Shown here in pieces: positions 9,578 through 63,774 of a DNA stretch of 64,000 bases. This DNA is from Scenedesmus sp. PABB004 (lineage: Eukaryota), in NCBI GenBank assembly GCA_014905635.1, contig CM026547.1, forward strand, positions 3,596,001 through 3,660,000, in the 5' to 3' direction. The notes under the pieces were generated by a model, which saw nothing but the letters and a program-made list of their open reading frames with translations, was not told where the DNA came from and ran no database searches. The position numbers were made by a program, and so were the translations under genes. Within the stretch, counting starts at the first letter, position 1; every line of letters starts with the position of its first letter.

Positions 9578-11234
9578 CATGGCGGGCCGCATCGCGCGGG
9601 TGCGGCGGCGCGGCGCGCGAGCAGCGCCGCCGTTCGCGGCCCGCCCGCGCGCCGCGGCGCCCGATCCGGCCGGCCCCGGCTGACGCCTCCCCGTTCCCGC
9701 CCGTCCCGCGCCCGCAGCCGCTGGCGGGCGGCGGCGGCAGGCCCGGCGGCAGCGAGCCGCGCTGCCAAAAGTGCCTGCAGGCGGGGCACTGGACCTACGA
9801 GTGCAAGGGCCAGCCGGCCTACCAGTCGCGCCCCTCCGCCAGCCAGCAGCTCATGAACCCGGTGCGCTGCCCGGCCGCGCGCTGCGCGGGCGCCGCCGCC
9901 GCTGCCGCGCGCCGCCGTGCCGCGCTCGCCGATCCCCCGCCCCGTCCCGCCCCGCGCCCGCCGCAGGCCAAGCGCAAGTACCTGGACGCCTCGGAGGTGC
10001 CGGAGTGGATGCGCTTCAGCAAGAAGGAGCTGGAGGCGCGGCAGCGCGCCGAGGCCGAGGAGCGGCGCAAGGCGCGCAAGAAGAAGCACAAGCCCGCGCC
10101 GTCCTCGTCGTCCAGCAGCAGCAGCAGCAGCTCCTCGTCAGACTCTGGCAGCACCACCAGCTCCAGCACGACCTCGTCGGGCTCGTCCTCCAGCTCCGGC
10201 AGCAGCGGCAGCAGCGGCAGCAGCAGCAGCAGCAGCGACAGCAGCAGCAGCAGCGACAGCGGGCGCCGGCGCAAGTCGCCGCCGCGCAAGCGCTCCAAGC
10301 GCGCCGGCTCGGGGGACAAGCGCGGCGCCGCGCGGGACCGCAGCGCGTCGCCGCCGCCGCCGCCGCGCGGCGGCGGCAGCGCCGAGGACGTTGAGGAGCG
10401 CGCGCCCGCCGACGGTGACGCGCGGCAGCGCAGCCCGCCCGGCAGCGCCGGCCGCCGGCCTGACGGGCGGGCGGACGGGCGGGCCGCCGCGGCGGCGGCC
10501 GACCCCGCCGGCGGCGGCAAGCTGCGCCCCGAGCAGCAGGCGCCCGAGGCTCGCGGCGGCGGCCGGGACGACAGCCGCGAGCGGCGCGGCGGGCGCGGCC
10601 GCAGCCGCAGCGCCAGCCCGGGCAGGTGGCGCGGCAGCGACGACGAGGGCGACCGCCGCCCCACGCTGGGCGCGCGCCACGCGCGCGAGCGCCTGGCCGC
10701 CCCGCCGGGCGAGCGCCGGCGCCACGTGCGCTCCGAGGTCGCCGACCGCGGCGGAGACGTGGCGCGGGGCGGGCCGCGCGGCCGCTCGCCGCAGCGCCGC
10801 GGCGGCGCCGGGCGCAGCCCCGACCGCAGCCGGGAGCGCGGCGGCGGCGCGCGCGGGCGCGCCCGCGCTCGCCGCCGCGCGGACGGTCGGGCTCTCCGCC
10901 GCGCGGCCGGCCCCGCTCGCCGCGCGGTGCGCCGCCCCGCTCGCCTGCCAGGCGCGGCGGCGAGCGGCGCCGCAGCCCCTCGCCCCGCGCCGGCGAGCGG
11001 CGGGCGGAGCGCGGCGGGCGCGAGCCGGAGGCGCGTGCGGGGCGCAGCCCCGGGCGCAGCGACGGCGGCGACCGCCGCAAGAGCCCCGGCAGCCCCTCTG
11101 GCAGCAGCAGCAGCAGCAGCTCCTCCAGCAGCTCGGGCGGCAGCAGCGACAGCGGGCGGCGGAGCGGCGGCGGCGAGCCCAAGCGCGTGCCGCTGCGCCG
11201 CGGCCGCGCGCGCAGCCCGGCGGCGAGCAGGTAG
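9578..11234 (+). CDS. Zinc-knuckle ZCCHC10-like protein with Ser-rich and RS/RSP-rich tail; spliced, with an apparent frameshift near 10850
   Basis: MAGRIAR|..[40 protein letters not shown].. matches the ZCCHC10-type knuckle. Poly-Ser and RSPP repeats follow. 3' end is uncertain. Confidence 0.75.
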
Positions 11235-33672: not shown

Positions 33673-34823
33673 TCAGCTCGCCGCCTTCCGCTTCTTCCGG
33701 GCCCCTGCTGCCGCCCCGCCAGCAGCCGTCTGCTGCTGGACCGGCTGCTCCTGCTGCTGCTCCTGCTGCTGCCGCTGCCGCTGCTGCTGCTTGGCCTTCT
33801 TCTTGGCCTTGTCCTTGCTGCCGCCCGGCGCCGCGGCGCCGCCGGCGGGCGGCGGCCCCATGAAGCGCGCCGCCCACGCCGCCGCGTCGCCGCCCACCAG
33901 CGGCGCCAGCTCGGCGGCCGCCGCGGCCTCGACGTCGGGCGCGCCGCAGTGCAGCAGCCCCGCGAGCACCTTCTCGGCGTGGCTGCCCACGAGCGGCGCG
34001 CAGCGCCCCGCGAGCGCGCGCGACCAGAGCGCCGCGGCAAAGGCGCGCGCGCCCGCGCCGTCGGCGCCGTCGGCGCCGCCCGCGAGCAGCAGGCGCCGCA
34101 GCGCGCGGCTGGCGTGGTAGTGTGTGAGGAGCCCCTCCTGCTGCTCCGGCGCCTGCTCCGGCGCCTGCTCCGCCGCCGCCTCCGCCTTGGCCTTCTTCTT
34201 CTTGGCCCCCTGCGGCTGCGGCTGCTGCGGGGCGCCGCTGCCGCTGCAGTCGGCCGCGACCGCCGCGACGATCGCCGCGTGCACGCCCTCCACGCCGCCC
34301 TGCTGCAGCTCCCACAGCAGCCCGCCGGCGCCGCCGCGCGACACCTCCACCACGACGTCGCCGCCGACAGGGCTGCGCAGCAGCTCGCCCGCCTGGCCGG
34401 CGCACAGCGCGCACAGCGCCGCGGCGAGGCAGTCCTTGCCGCCGCCCAGCAGCTCGCGCCGCCGCGCGTCGGCGGCCTTTTTGCTCTCGCCCAGCGGCCG
34501 CTCCACCAGCTTGGGCGCGGCGCCGCCGTTGGCCGCCGCCTCGCCGTCGCTGCCGCTGCCGTCGCCGGCCTCCGCGGCGGCCTCGCCCTCGTCCTCCTCC
34601 TCCTCGTCCAGCTCCTCGTCGTCGCCGTCCGGCGCCGCCCCGCTCTCCCTGGGCCCCGACTCGGGCACCATGCGGCTCTTGGCGGGCGGGTGCAGCAGCT
34701 CCAGCGTGGCCGGCGGGAGGTAGCGGTGGCAGTCGGGCGCGAGCAGCTGCATCAGCACGCGGTGCGCGTGCTTGTTGGTGGCCAGCTCCTCGAGATGCTC
34801 CTGTGGGCGCGGCGGCAGCGACA

Positions 34824-34862
<39 letters not shown>

Positions 34863-35509
34863 TGGGGTCGGGCCGCGCCCAGCAGCCGCGCGGCAGGGCC
34901 CGCGCCGCCCCGGCGGGCGGCGCCCGTGCCGGCTCTCAGCGGTGCTCGTGTGTGAGCGGACGACACTCAACATTGCGTCTTCAGTCCGCCCGTCGTGTGG
35001 CTGTCATCACCGAGCCTTCCCGCCGCAGCACCCGCGCCCCGCCCGCGCGCCGCGCCGCACCCTGAGCTCGCTGACGATGGTCTTGCTGGTCAGCGCCGTG
35101 TCGTCCACCACCGTGAGCGCCGTGGCGACCACCGCGTGGCCCCACTCATTCTCAGCCGTCTGCCACACAAAGCCTGCGGTCGGCGCGGCGCGCGGCGCGG
35201 CTCAGCGCCGGCCCCGCGCGCGCGGGCGCGCGGCCCGCAGCCCACGGCGCGATGCCCACGGCGCGTGGCCCGCGGCGCGCGGCGCACCCTTCATGCCCTT
35301 GACGAGGCGCTTGCGGTCCTTGGGCGTGCCGTAGGCCAGCGCCATGCACGCCGCCGCGGCACCGTCGTGCGTGTGCACCAGCTTCAGCGCGTTGCCGCCG
35401 GTCGCGGCCAGCGTGTCGACGACGTCCGCCACGAGGGACCTGCGGCGGCGGCGGGCCAGCGTGAGCGGCACGCGGCGGCAGCTCGGCGGCGCGGGCTGCT
35501 GCGGCTGCT

Positions 35510-35552
<43 letters not shown>

Positions 35553-37380
35553 ACGGCGCACGCAGCGTGCACAGCACACACACAGACAGCGCAGGCAGGG
35601 GGGCCGGGCGCGGCGCTCTCGGAGGTGCTCTTGTGAGCGGACGACACTCAACATTGCGTCTTCAGTCCGCCCGTCGTGTGACTGTCGTCACCGAGCGCGC
35701 GCCCACGCGGCACAGCAACAGCAACAGCAGCAGCAGCGCGTGCGCGCGGCGGGCACACACGAAGCAGCGCCCGCGCCGCGCGCTCACCCCGGCGCCTCTG
35801 TGAGCAGCTCGCGCAGCAGGCGGTGCGTCATCACCGGGTGCAGCAGCGCCTTCTCCAGCACCGGCGCGAGGCCCTTGTAGAGGTGCGCGACCACCGCGGC
35901 GCGCTTGGCCGGCTCCGCGCCGGCGAGCAGCTGCCCCAGGTGCGCGATCGACTCGGCCGGCATGGCCACGCCGCCAAAGAGGCTGAACTCGCGGGCGTAG
36001 AGCTCGGCGCAGAGCGCGTTGCGGCACGGCGGCGGCGCGACAGAGTACAGGTCGTCCAGCACGTCCGCGCCGGCGGGGTGGCGCAGCAGCTCGGCGACGT
36101 GGCCGCGGAACAGCTTCACCAGGCCTGCGCGGCGCGGGGCGCCGGCGCGGGCGCGCGGGGCGGCAACGGGCGCGCGGCGTGAGCGGCGTGCAGGGCGGCT
36201 CAGCGGCGCGCGGAACACGCAGAGAGGTGCGGGCGGACGCGCGCGGTGTGCCGGATCGAAAGGACCGGGCGCCCATGGGGCCGGGGCGCACGGTGTGACA
36301 TTCCTGCTGCTTCAATGTGAGCAGCGCCGCGGCGGCGGCGGGCGCGGCGGGCGCGGCCCCGCCAGGTGCCGCGGCCCTGCTGTGGCACAGGGTGGCGCAC
36401 ACACGCATGCACACGCGCAGGCAGGCAGGCGCGCGGCCACACACAATGTCAACGGCGGGCGGTGCTTCAGCACGTGTGTGTCGACAATTGCCAGCGCCGC
36501 GTGCGGCGGGAGGCATACTGAAAGATAACGCAGTTGTGTAGAGCATCACAAGCAGCGCCCCGCGCGCGCACACCCAGACCCACACACGCCGCGGGCGCGG
36601 ACCAGCGCGCAGTCTCTCCCTCCCCTCCCCCCGCTCCCCTCTCCTGCCTCCCTGGCCCCCGGCGCGCACCTGGCACGTCCTCCTTGGGCGCCAGCGCGAT
36701 GAGCTTCTGCACGACGTGCCGCCCAAACTTGCTCTTGCTCAGCGGCACGACCGCGGCGCGGATCTCAGCCTGCAGCCGCGCGCGCTCGGCCGCGCCGCCC
36801 TCCTTCAGGCACCACTGGATCACGCGCGACGCGCTGTGGTGGTTGGCCAGCTCCACGGTGTTGCCCTGGAGCTGCGCACGGGCGCGGGCGCGGGGCAGCA
36901 GGAGGCGTCGGCGGCGGCGCGCTGCGCGCCGCGGCGCGCGGCCGCTGCGTGCCGCGTGGCCGCTGCCGCGCGCCGCGACCGCCTCACCTTTTTGAGGATG
37001 CGCGACACCAGCGCCGCCTTCTCCTCCTTGGTCGCCTGCTTGGGCCGCAGCTGCTCCCACAGCACGACCGTCTCCTGGATCGTCGCGTAATTCTTCTTGA
37101 ACTTGAGCTTCTTGCTCTTCACCACCTCCTTCTGCTCCTTCCTGCGTGCCACGGGCGCGTGCGGCGTGAGGCGCGGGGCGCTCGCGGCCGCGCGCCGCAG
37201 CACCACGCAGAGCGGCGGCCGCCGCTGCGCGCACTTGCTCAGCAGCTTGGGCGCCGCCTTGGGCGCCGGCTTGGCGGCGGGCGGGCCCTTGCCGGCGGGG
37301 CGCTTGGACGCGGGGCCCTTGGGGGTGTCGCCGCCCGCGGGGCGCTTGCGCTTGGCCTCCGTCTTCATGCTGCTGCCCAT
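33673..37380 (-). CDS. PUM24: Pumilio/PUF-A family nucleolar protein (Puf6/PUM3/APUM24); multi-exon snoRNA host gene
   Basis: Lys-rich N-terminus, LWEQLR, HSASRVIQWCLKEG, LSKSKFGRHVVQKL, FRGHVAELLRHP, LVHTHDGA..YGTPKDRKRLVKGMK, VVDDTALTSK, SKKAADARRRELL (CPL domain). Confidence 0.9.
34932..35015 (-). ncRNA. Intronic box C/D snoRNA, U43/snR70-like, copy 1
   Basis: GCTC/GAGC terminal stem, box C GTGATGA, guide CGACGGGCGG + A + D' CTGA, C' ATGTTGA, box D CTGA. Guide pairs with SSU rRNA CCGCCCGUCG. The D'+5 base is the E. coli C1402 / yeast Cm1639 equivalent. Confidence 0.9.
35614..35697 (-). ncRNA. Intronic box C/D snoRNA, U43/snR70-like, copy 2 (variant boxes GTGACGA / CCGA)
   Basis: Near-identical to 34932-35015 but in a different intron. 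Same guide and D'/C' boxes, CGCTC/GAGCG stem. Confidence 0.85.
36463..36554 (-). ncRNA. Intronic box C/D snoRNA, snR68-like (LSU Am2640 equivalent)
   Basis: TGCT/AGCA stem, box C GTGATGC, box D CTGA. 13-nt guide CTGCGTTATCTTT is complementary to LSU rRNA AAAGAUAACGCAG and is followed by a degenerate D' (CAGT). Confidence 0.7.
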
Positions 37381-37880
37381 GGGCCGCCGCGCGCGCTGCA
37401 GCGCATGGGGGGCGCCGCGGCCGCGGCCCGGGGTGGATGGAGGCACGGGGAGGCTGTGTAGGGGCGGTGGGCGCGCGGGGCGCCTTGGATGCGCAGGTTT
37501 GTCACTTCCGCGCAGTCACGACCGCTGCGCCCTGCACCGCGCGTGGTGCAGCGCGGCGCGGCATCCCAGGCGCGCCCACGACCTCTCTGCCCCACAACGC
37601 GCTGCGGCAAGCAGTCCCGCGCCGCCGCAGAGCGCCACGCCGCGCCGCCATCGCACGCGCCCCTCGTCGCCCGCCGCCCGCGCGCCGCACGGCGGCCACG
37701 CCCGTCCGGAGCGTTGCAACGGGACCCCTGTGACTGGCCGGAACCGGCCTCGCGGCGGTCCCTCGCTAGCGGCGGCGGCGGCGCCGCACGCAGCGGCAGC
37801 AGCGCTGCTGCCGGCGGCCGCCGCGCTCCAGGAGGCTCCCCCGTCGCCGCCCCGCGCGCCGCCGCGGCGGGCGCGCCGCC

Positions 37881-39081
37881 ATGCGGCCGCTCAGCGAGGA
37901 GGAGACCAAGATGGTGTTCGAGAAGCTCTACAAGTTCGTGGGCAAGGACATCAAGTCGATGATCGAGCGCCCCGACGGCCGCTACTGCCTGCGCCTGCAC
38001 AAGAACCGCGTGTACTACGTGAGCGAGGCGCTCATGAAGAAGGCAACCAATGTGAGCGGGGCGCGGTAGCACCGCCAGAGAGGGGTCGCGGGCGCGCACG
38101 GCGGCGGCGCACCCCCGCGGCGGCGGCACGCGTCCGCGGCGGCACGCGTCGGCGGGGCGCGGCGGCGCTCGCCCACGCGCGTCCGGCCCGGCGGCGCCGC
38201 AGATCGCGCGCGACAAGCTCGTCGGCCTCGGCACGCCCGTGGGCAAGCTCACGCACTCGGGCAAGTTCCGGCTCACCATCGGCGCGCTGGACGTGCTCGC
38301 GCGCTACGCCAAGCACAAGGTGCGGCGGCGGCACGGCGCGCGGCGCGCGGCACGGCGCGGCTCGGCGCGCGCGCGCCGCGGCTGCCGAGGACGACCGACA
38401 CTGCGCCCGACCCCTGAGGGCCGCAACCCATCTTTTCATCTTTCCACCGAGGCTCCCGAGCGCGCGGCGCGGCGGCGCGGCGGCGTGTTGGCGTGCGTGT
38501 TGGTGTGTGTGTTTGCGCGTGCGCGGCGCGTGAGCTGCGCTGCCTGTGCTGCGTGCGCGGCCGCGTGCAGCGGGCGGCGCGGCGCCCGATGACGAAGAAT
38601 CAGATCACCTTCAGTCTTCAACCTGACTCACCCGTGAACGACTGCATCTTTCTCCAGCCGAGGGCGCCGCCGCGCGCTGCCGCCGCCGGTGGCGCGCCTG
38701 CCGTTGACGTTGCCATTGCCGTGCGCGCGTGTGTGGGCTGGCCCGCCGCCTGTTGCCGCCGTGCCGCGCCGCGCCGCGCCACCCACCGCCCGCTCGCTCG
38801 CTCGCGCCCCTCCCTCGCTGGCGCCGCAGGTGTGGCTGAAGCCGTCGGCGGAGATGCAGTACCTGTACGGCAACCACGTGCTCAAGTCGGGCCTTGGGCG
38901 CATCACCGAGAGCACGCCCGCGTACGCCGGCGTCGTGGTGTACTCGATGGCCGACGTCCCGCTCGGCTTCGGCCTCACCGCCAAGTCGACCAACGAGGCG
39001 CGCGGCATGGAGCCGTCGGGCATCGTCGTGCTGCACCAGGCCGACGTCGGCGAGTACCTGCGCGCCGAGGACGAGCTGTGA
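37881..39081 (+). CDS. NIP7: 60S ribosome subunit biogenesis protein NIP7; 3 exons, snoRNA host gene
   Basis: [97 protein letters not shown]. Confidence 0.97.
38384..38453 (+). ncRNA. Candidate intronic box C/D snoRNA (variant boxes AGGACGA / CCGA)
   Basis: GCC/GGC stem, internal CTGA. 15-nt guide TCTTTTCATCTTTCC lies one base before CCGA and is complementary to the LSU rRNA 5'-domain sequence GGAAAGAUGAAAAGA. Confidence 0.7.
38579..38670 (+). ncRNA. Intronic double-guide box C/D snoRNA (variant boxes ATGACGA / CCGA)
   Basis: 9-bp terminal stem GCGGCGCCC/GGGCGCCGC. Guide CTTCAGTCTTCAA precedes D' CTGA and guide CTTTCTCCA precedes box D. They are complementary to adjacent parts of LSU rRNA UUGAAGACUGAAG-UGGAGAAAG. 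Confidence 0.85.
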
Positions 39082-39466
39082 GGCGGCGCGCGGGACGGTC
39101 CGCGGCGCGCTCGCGGCGCGTGCTCGCGGCGCGCGCTCGCGCCGCGCGCGGCTGAGTTTGCAGCCGTCGCGCGCGCGCGTGTACAACAACAACAGTGCGT
39201 TCCTGCGCACCGAGCAGCGTGTGCGCGGGTAATTTACCCCCCCCCCCCCCCCCCCGCAGTCGTCCGCGGCCGCGGCGTGGCACCGCGCGCGACCGGTCGC
39301 GCGTGGCTACGCCGCCGCCGCCGCCAGACCGCGCGGCCGCCGAGCTCGTCGCTCGCCCCCGCCGCTCCCGTCGCCTAGTGACCTCGCAGCCCGCCGCACG
39401 CGCCTGAGCGCAGCTCAAGCCGCGCACGGCTCGGCCATCACAGGTGCCATCACCCACCTCACCGCC

Positions 39467-63373: not shown

Positions 63374-63774
63374 CGGCGGCCCCGCGGCGGCGGCGGGAGC
63401 AGGGGGAGCGGCGGCGGGGAGCGGCCGGCGGGCTGTGGGGCAGGGAGCGGCGGGGGCGCGTGTGCGCGGGCGGGCTGGCGCGCGTGCCGGGGAGGGGGAG
63501 GGGCGCCTCTTCAGCAGGCGCAACGACGGGGGACGCAGGATGGCGAGCTTGCGCCACGGCGCCGGCGGCGGGGGTGGGCGAGCAGCGGCGGGCTGCGGCT
63601 TTGCGGTGACGCGGCGCGTGCGGCGGTGACGGCTCTTTTCCCTGCGTCCTCGCGCGCTTTCCCTCGCTTTCCCTCGCTTTTCCGCGGAGCGGCGCGCCAT
63701 TCCGCTTCACGCGCGCATCGAATTCGCGCCAAACGCCGAGTCGCGCGCAAACCGGCCTGCGCTCCGCGCGCGCC

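Follow-up and report, generated by a model that had tools for sequence, protein, structure and literature searches.

Few features of box C/D RNAs are as conserved as the U.U pair that follows the sheared G.A pairs. Here we describe five putative intronic small nucleolar RNAs (snoRNAs) of the box C/D type, designated A to E, in a 64,000-nucleotide (nt) stretch of Scenedesmus sp. PABB004 (contig CM026547.1, positions 3,596,001 to 3,660,000; this whole stretch is called the window below, and all coordinates are counted from its first letter), three of which carry C.C in place of this pair. In kink-turn (k-turn) nomenclature the two bases concerned are 3b, which is box C position 5, and 3n, which is box D position 2.

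Box C/D k-turns are described as strongly favouring U:U at 3b:3n and G:C at 4b:4n (PMC5689011). For the k-turn Kt-7, where all 16 3b.3n pairs have been compared, it is reported that Watson-Crick pairs fold poorly in Mg2+, that C at 3b or G at 3n goes with folding, and that Kt-7 with G-C, the worst pair, still folds upon L7Ae binding (PMC4382518). The known U-U k-turns are placed in the N3 class and C-C in the N1 group, which has a wider C1'-C1' distance (PMC4914095). In PMC4316175 L7Ae is reported to contact G1b, G2n, the loop bases and the phosphate at 3n/4n, and the contacts listed there include none to the 3b or 3n bases. A Drosophila small Cajal body-specific RNA (scaRNA) is reported to keep its guide activity with A-U or U-A in place of U-U (PMC6770171), and according to Kuhn et al. 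2002, as cited in PMC6461891, the affinity of archaeal L7 was reduced by C-U and unaffected by A-U. As to the box words themselves, in Entamoeba and Plasmodium CCGA has been described as a variant of D', and an Entamoeba box C consensus permits g, c or a at position 5. The k-turn literature thus makes C.C a plausible working pair and offers a rationale by which a mixed pair might be at a disadvantage; by analogy with Kt-7, C.C is predicted to be compatible with k-turn folding, but in another conformational class (N1 instead of N3).

In the genome studied here the C.C k-turn is a genuine peculiarity of the lineage; covariation of its two positions is suggested, and mixed states do occur in relatives. 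We regard it as evenly poised between right and wrong that all five are genuine, selectively maintained intronic C/D methylation-guide snoRNAs, and that the lineage-specific C.C of three of them was driven by GC pressure with weak coupling of the two positions. Judged from their sequences the five are guide RNAs, an identification which rests on anatomy, excess over chance, guide complementarity, orthology and conservation of the host intron. From the same sequences we infer their expression, their assembly into small nucleolar ribonucleoproteins (snoRNPs), the methylation of their targets, the role of GC pressure and the coupling.

Anatomy and guides of the five snoRNAs

Direct reading of the sequence gave C.C at 3b.3n in 3/5 snoRNAs (B, D and E), U.U in 2/5 (A and C) and a mixed pair in 0/5 (Table 1). 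This bears out, in coordinates and letters, what the initial annotation had claimed, and its assignment of the two positions to the 3b.3n pair of the k-turn, normally U.U, agrees with the descriptions in PMC5689011 and PMC6770171. The k-turn register is GGU-GA-U-G-A...C-U-G-A in A, GGU-GA-C-G-A...C-C-G-A in B, GAG-GA-C-G-A...CCGA in D and GAU-GA-C-G-A...CCGA in E, and by sequence register 5/5 would have the features of a standard k-turn. The GA core of box C, which gives the sheared pairs, was present in 5/5. While A has the full RUGAUGA consensus, B and E deviate from it at position 5 only (U to C), D at positions 2 and 5, and C at position 7. Box D is CUGA in A and C; in B, D and E it is CCGA, with GA and the 4n C kept and position 2 changed. 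The C.C copies also retain the 3-nt bulge, the G.A/A.G pairs, the 4b-4n G-C and the terminal stem. A terminal stem of at least 4 base pairs (bp) abutting the boxes was found in A, B, C and E; that of D has 3 bp, which can be lengthened over 38379-38458 to 3+3 bp interrupted by a 2x2 mismatch, and the loop nucleotide L3 of D is G, not U. In minimum-energy folds A, B, D and E each formed their terminal stem, with fold z-scores of -2.4 for B and -3.4 for E, and the strongest stem of all five is that of E. The folds of A and B also have an internal hairpin (GGGCGGAC ... GUCGUCCGC), conserved between the two, in which most of the D' guide is paired with the spacer downstream of it.

The paralogues A and B lie in neighbouring introns, B's being the next one upstream of A's in a Puf-A/PUM3-like gene. 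Their bodies are ~93% identical and their intron flanks cannot be aligned. Five columns differ between them, two of which are exactly 3b and 3n. The claim that A and B differ at exactly this pair was therefore overstated, as the two also differ in CAGCC/CAGTC, in the D-guide region (a 2-nt indel and one substitution) and at 5n (G/U). A and its C.C paralogue are equally well conserved. Both C's of B are retained in a metagenome contig that is ~98% identical across 35563-35894; its single change inside B, at 35681, turns the guide flank of B A-like.

The guides were compared with 61 ribosomal DNA (rDNA) loci, which were found via a universal primer and annotated with Rfam. All five snoRNAs have 10-16 nt of ribosomal RNA (rRNA) complementarity correctly placed beside a D or D' box, and the guides stand out as AT-rich islands against the 78% GC background. 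In A the D' guide (...CGACGGGCGG-A|CUGA) complements helix 44 of 18S, and B has an identical one; in both, the ten nt ahead of D' are the perfect complement of 18S CCGCCCGTCG (L036 18S 1642-1651). By the fifth-nucleotide rule the predicted target of A and B would be the first C after G, L036 18S C1645. The 2'-O-methylated C (Cm) of helix 44 in 18S is the site described as guided by the U43/snR70 clan (PMC2794176, PMC3511168), and the predicted A/B site would be this same C, within CCG-C-CCGUCG. Neither A nor B gave a match to RF00221 or RF01238 (SNORD43/snR70 clan) at E<=5.

The guide of C (36521-36533) is a perfect 13-mer to the 3' part of the large-subunit (LSU) rRNA, or 17 nt with one mismatch. 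The box-D guide of D (38432-38445) has 14-16 nt of complementarity to GGAAAGATGAAAAG in the LSU 5' part, present in 36/61 rDNA loci, and this match stops one nt ahead of CCGA. E has a D' box CUGA at 38623-38626, and its D' guide pairs over 13 nt with LSU TTGAGGACTGAAG in L004. Its D guide forms 11 bp with LSU TGGAGAAAGGT in L008 and three other loci and adjoins CCGA. The stretch between these guides is complementary to the LSU just downstream, and D' guide, spacer and D guide together correspond to one LSU stretch of ~60 nt. That the rRNA-matching guides of D and E directly abut CCGA argues that CCGA acts as box D. We considered and rejected an identity of E with U24 (SNORD24), which has the same LSU stretch: AtU24 is described as guiding Cm1439 and Am1451, 12 nt apart (PMC3511168), while both predicted sites of E are A and lie 13 nt apart (L004 register).

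A strict scan of both strands of the window (128 kb in all) required TGAYGA, a CYGA placed 45-130 nt downstream and, flush against the 3-nt bulge, a terminal stem of 4 bp or more; it returned exactly A, B and E. In 200 dinucleotide-preserving shuffles the mean number of strict matches was 0.245 and the maximum 2, three never being reached. With a relaxed scan the window gave 98 candidates, 61 of them C.C by composition alone. Because CCGA/GACG-type words abound (CCGA occurs 254 and 275 times on the two strands) and 61/98 relaxed candidates are C.C, bare motif matches are uninformative in this genome. Low-GC islands, rRNA 11-mer complementarity and the relaxed box scan together yielded no additional or mixed snoRNA with support in the window. 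A rRNA-complementary match at 9995-10009 that is followed by CCGA was rejected, as it sits in apparent coding sequence. A weak sixth candidate of 133 nt at 63616-63748 (+) carries GGUGACGG ... CCGA and has a 9-bp stem including two G.U pairs, with a tandem CTTTCCCTCGC complementary to the LSU just upstream of the target of D. It has no recognisable D' box, its rRNA match is this tandem 11-mer, and it is probably due to chance.

Rfam gave 0 matches at the gathering score anywhere in the window, and at E<=5 over 34800-38800 none of A to E was matched. The initial annotation had expected standard snoRNA finders that require CUGA to miss the C.C class. Rfam does miss B, D and E even at E<=5; however, the canonical A and C are missed as well, and the miss is therefore not specific to C.C.

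Orthologues, host genes and the shift to C

A search of metagenome contigs with NIP7 exon 3 as the query yielded 80 loci (L062-L141; best identity 82%). The E guide word TTCAGTCTTCA was found just upstream of the last NIP7 exon in 58/80 loci, which span 0.41-0.76 G+C. Going by these loci, the E-type snoRNA has been stably associated with the last intron of NIP7 for a long time. The E set consists of 33 unique sequences including that of the window, in 24 clusters at 80% identity; L136 was merged into L123. The terminal stems of the E orthologues differ widely and are nevertheless complementary (GGGCCT/AGGCCC, TCTTTC/GAAAGA, CATTCG/CGAATG and CCGCCGCC/GGCGGCGG). Over 23 lineages the 3b.3n pair of E was U.U in 19, U.A in one (L121/126, box D CAGA), C.U in one, U.C in one and C.C in one, the last being the window. 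Orthologues of D were found in 10 loci (5 unique sequences, one lineage) and read AGGAUGA/CUGA; the unusual L3 G of D is common to them. The 80 NIP7 loci contained no orthologue of A, B or C.

The 4b-4n pair of the E orthologues varies in step. It is U-A in L101 (UGAUUU/AUGA), U.G in the L114 group (UGAUUC/GUGA; L114/L116/L117/L129-L141) and G.U in the L123 group (UGAUGC/UUGA; L123/L135/L136). Rfam matched none of the E and D orthologues in the 8 loci on which it was run, its single match being to an unrelated snoU36a in L116. This snoU36a-like RNA (69 bits, L116 456-540) lies in another NIP7 intron, reads UGAUGA/CUGA and has a terminal stem of up to 16 bp; it was also seen in L103/105/106/108, L114, L121/126 and L128/138/139. 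Intron 1 of the window's NIP7 has no snoU36a-like RNA. A relaxed scan of the loci of high-GC relatives found only U36a-like and E-type RNAs, the rest being unsupported.

We compared the snoRNAs of the window with 22 E lineages and one D lineage, each contributing two sites (46 sites). C at 3b or 3n was found at 2/46 sites elsewhere and at 6/10 here (binomial ~1e-6). On these counts the move to C is particular to this lineage. Of the other lineages at 0.65 G+C or more, L081 is the only one with C at either site.

The G+C of the window is 78% overall and 76-82% along its length. All of A to E are intronic, 5/5 are sense to their host, and the two hosts are ribosome-biogenesis genes, a Puf-A/PUM3-like gene and NIP7 (Table 1). 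Exon and intron limits were set by eye from reading frames and GT..AG ends. The two genes are divergent and stand head to head with start codons ~500 bp apart (37380-37883), which suggests a bidirectional promoter shared by both snoRNA hosts. Microsatellites of the (GGC)n and (CAG/CAA)n types, together with a ~20-nt run of C, lie in the host-gene introns and the NIP7 3' region (34828-34862, 35500-35550, 35715-35740 and 39215-39235).

Four metagenome runs contained small shares of the stretch, with short identical contigs across C and E and the ~98% contig across B. Identical or ~98% identical contigs from freshwater and sediment metagenomes covered 35563-35894 (run X1), 36400-36550 (X2) and 38458-38700 (X4), and the organism or a close strain is therefore present in such samples at low depth.

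Table 1 Putative snoRNAs and host genes described in the window.
Feature	Position	Strand	Box C	Box D	3b.3n	3b position	3n position	Terminal stem	Description
snoRNA A	34931-35016	-	GUGAUGA	CUGA	U.U	35006	34938	5 bp	
snoRNA B	35613-35698	-	GUGACGA	CCGA	C.C	35687	35621	6 bp	paralogue of A
snoRNA C	36463-36554	-	GUGAUGC	CUGA	U.U	36545	36469	4 bp	
snoRNA D	38384-38453	+	AGGACGA	CCGA	C.C	38392	38448		
snoRNA E	38579-38670	+	AUGACGA	CCGA	C.C	38593	38659	9 bp	
Puf-A/PUM3/Puf6-like host gene	33673..37380	-							PUF repeat and CPL/NUC119 domain (Pfam on exons); introns carry A, B and C
NIP7 host gene	37883..39081	+							three exons in view; pre-PUA and UPF0113 PUA domains (Pfam)
NIP7 intron 2	38321..38829	+							GT..AG ends; carries D and E; Pfam on flanking exons

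Possible coupling of the two positions and alternative explanations

Under the explanation that we prefer, the most likely driver of the change would be extreme GC pressure (78% G+C) acting on two box positions that need a pyrimidine.pyrimidine pair, but at which no base-specific contact of the Snu13/L7Ae type has been reported. A mixed C.U or U.C pair may be somewhat less fit, and a second change would then follow soon after the first, giving a coupling that is weak and not strict. The changes within this genome fit such a course, there being three independent ones, all double and none single. If the two positions were independent (p=0.6), the probability of zero mixed pairs among five would be 0.038, and the likelihood of three C.C and two U.U is 0.35 under full coupling vs 0.012 under independence. 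The chance that the five A/B columns would include exactly this pair is 0.003-0.03, depending on the number of sites taken to be free. As far as these sequences go, the data are suggestive of weak coupling of 3b and 3n and of nothing stronger.

It should be noted that several points weigh against this explanation. The sample is five snoRNAs from one 64-kb window, and Fisher's test of covariation gave p=0.1 in the window (n=5) and p=0.17 across the E lineages. Mixed pairs occur among the orthologues of E, as C.U in L066 (GUGACGA/CUGA, with a 6-bp stem) and as U.C in L081 (GUGAUGC/CCGA), the sister group of which (L068-70) has CUGA at the same place. L112, at 0.76 G+C, and most other lineages of at least 0.65 stay U.U. 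The lineage counts were hand-curated, the boxes of L101, the L104 group, L136 and one L103 variant being assigned by reading. The rRNA reference was fungal-type rDNA contaminating prokaryote assemblies and not the organism's own rRNA, and the stem of D is 3 bp unless mismatches are allowed. From the single changes in L066 and L081 it follows that the 3b.3n pair is not obligately coupled, and from L112 and the other U.U lineages that GC pressure alone does not force the change; to judge by these lineages, high G+C by itself does not yield the shift to C.

These points bear on the claim, made in the initial annotation, of a covarying pair that is tolerated or selected in this extreme-GC genome. 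The claim is partly supported, in that the C.C snoRNAs look functional, with conserved guides, a conserved body in B and a conserved host-intron position, and in that C is enriched; strict covariation is not established. Variation of the kind that had been named as telling against the claim, with one position changing singly, was found across species (L066 and L081) and not inside this genome.

The alternative that fares best, which we consider possible if doubtful, is that there is no coupling at all, 3b and 3n having drifted to C independently under GC pressure, with the lack of mixed pairs in the window a matter of sampling luck. The single changes in both directions among the orthologues, the two Fisher tests and the activity of the Drosophila scaRNA with A-U or U-A (PMC6770171), by which the pair would be permissive, all speak for it. 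It has to set aside the three double changes with no single one (0.038), the five A/B columns that include exactly this pair (0.003-0.03) and the loss of L7 affinity with C-U in Kuhn et al. 2002, as cited in PMC6461891.

Stronger forms of selection have less in their favour. That UGACGA/CCGA would be the prevailing, selected form genome-wide, with mixed pairs assembling poorly, a protein-dependent N3-type U.U k-turn exchanged for an ion-foldable N1-type C.C one, and Snu13/Nop58 adjusted to it, we think unlikely. It is still harder to credit a selected co-evolution in which Snu13 and Nop58/Nop56 have changed to prefer C.C, with strict covariation and with A and C as U.U relics. The enrichment of C is strong and lineage-specific, other lineages of at least 0.65 G+C show no such shift save for the single C in L081, and a switch from U-U (N3) to C-C (N1) could need an adjustment of the protein (PMC4914095). 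U.U is kept in 2/5, however, A is conserved as well as B, and the contacts of L7Ae near 3n that are reported in PMC4316175 are to the backbone only.

Decay, by which the C.C copies would be non-functional and their boxes eroding under GC pressure, is very improbable. In its favour, CCGA was known solely as a D' variant in two surveys (Entamoeba and Plasmodium), and D combines a weak stem with a box C that has two deviations. Against this, D and E are apparently single-copy and each has retained AT-rich guides whose rRNA complementarity of 13-16 nt is correctly spaced, the body of B is conserved and its flanks are not, the ~98% strain retains both C's, and no damage is seen in the G.A pairs, the 4b-4n pair or the stems, E having the strongest stem of the five (z -3.4). 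Finally, the idea that the five are not snoRNAs but motifs matched by chance in GC-rich DNA, which the commonness of CCGA and GACGA and the many C.C candidates of the relaxed scan might invite, can practically be discarded, given that shuffles never give three strict matches, that the guides match rRNA and that orthologues lie in the same NIP7 intron on many contigs with compensating stem changes.

Comparison with known box C/D and k-turn systems

The C.C k-turn is a variant within the known type of box C/D snoRNA, and an unusual one. Apart from one catalogue word and reports of CCGA in the D' position, the literature searched gave no description of a recurrent UGACGA/CCGA terminal pair. The identity of 3b.3n has been tied to protein-free folding and to conformational class (PMC4382518, PMC4914095), and a natural C.C lineage with functional-looking snoRNAs would offer a ready-made snoRNP test of these k-turn rules, as well as revealing how far base-composition pressure can shift a protein-binding RNA motif. 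For the annotation of snoRNAs in very GC-rich genomes, box C position 5 and box D position 2 should stay free; bare motif matches are unreliable there, as C.C-type words are frequent by chance.

With the canonical C/D k-turn (RUGAUGA/CUGA, bound by Snu13/15.5K) the window's snoRNAs share the bulge, the G.A/A.G pairs, the 4b-4n G-C and stem I. They also resemble canonical C/D snoRNAs in their guides, which end 1-2 nt ahead of D or D', and in being hosted by introns of ribosome-biogenesis genes. They differ from the canonical k-turn in that C.C replaces U.U in 3/5, for which better ion-induced folding is predicted from Kt-7. As in the SNORD43/U43/snR70 clan (Rfam CL00059), the D' guide of A and B would select the conserved helix-44 C; unlike that clan, A and B have no Rfam match at E<=5, their guide lies upstream of D', and B has C.C boxes. 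C at box C position 5 is also seen in Arabidopsis snoR4-2 ('tgacga', PMC1669756), as a single catalogue word and not as a recurrent paired change. The engineered Kt-7 of H. marismortui is reported to be k-turn-competent with C.C (PMC4382518, PMC4914095); those are ribosomal constructs studied in vitro, whereas the C.C of the window stands in a natural box C/D context with 4b-4n G-C.

Paired box changes under compositional pressure have their nearest precedent in the cryptophyte nucleomorph snoRNAs GtNM-R12-14 (AUGAUU/AUGA; PMC6461891), which are described as combining paired changes in boxes C and D, an extreme base composition and a viable k-turn. There the changed pair is the Watson-Crick 4b-4n in an AT-rich genome, a case of ordinary compensation, whereas here it is the non-Watson-Crick 3b.3n in a GC-rich one. 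The E orthologues of L101, the L114 group and the L123 group have the same kind of 4b-4n change as the nucleomorph snoRNAs.

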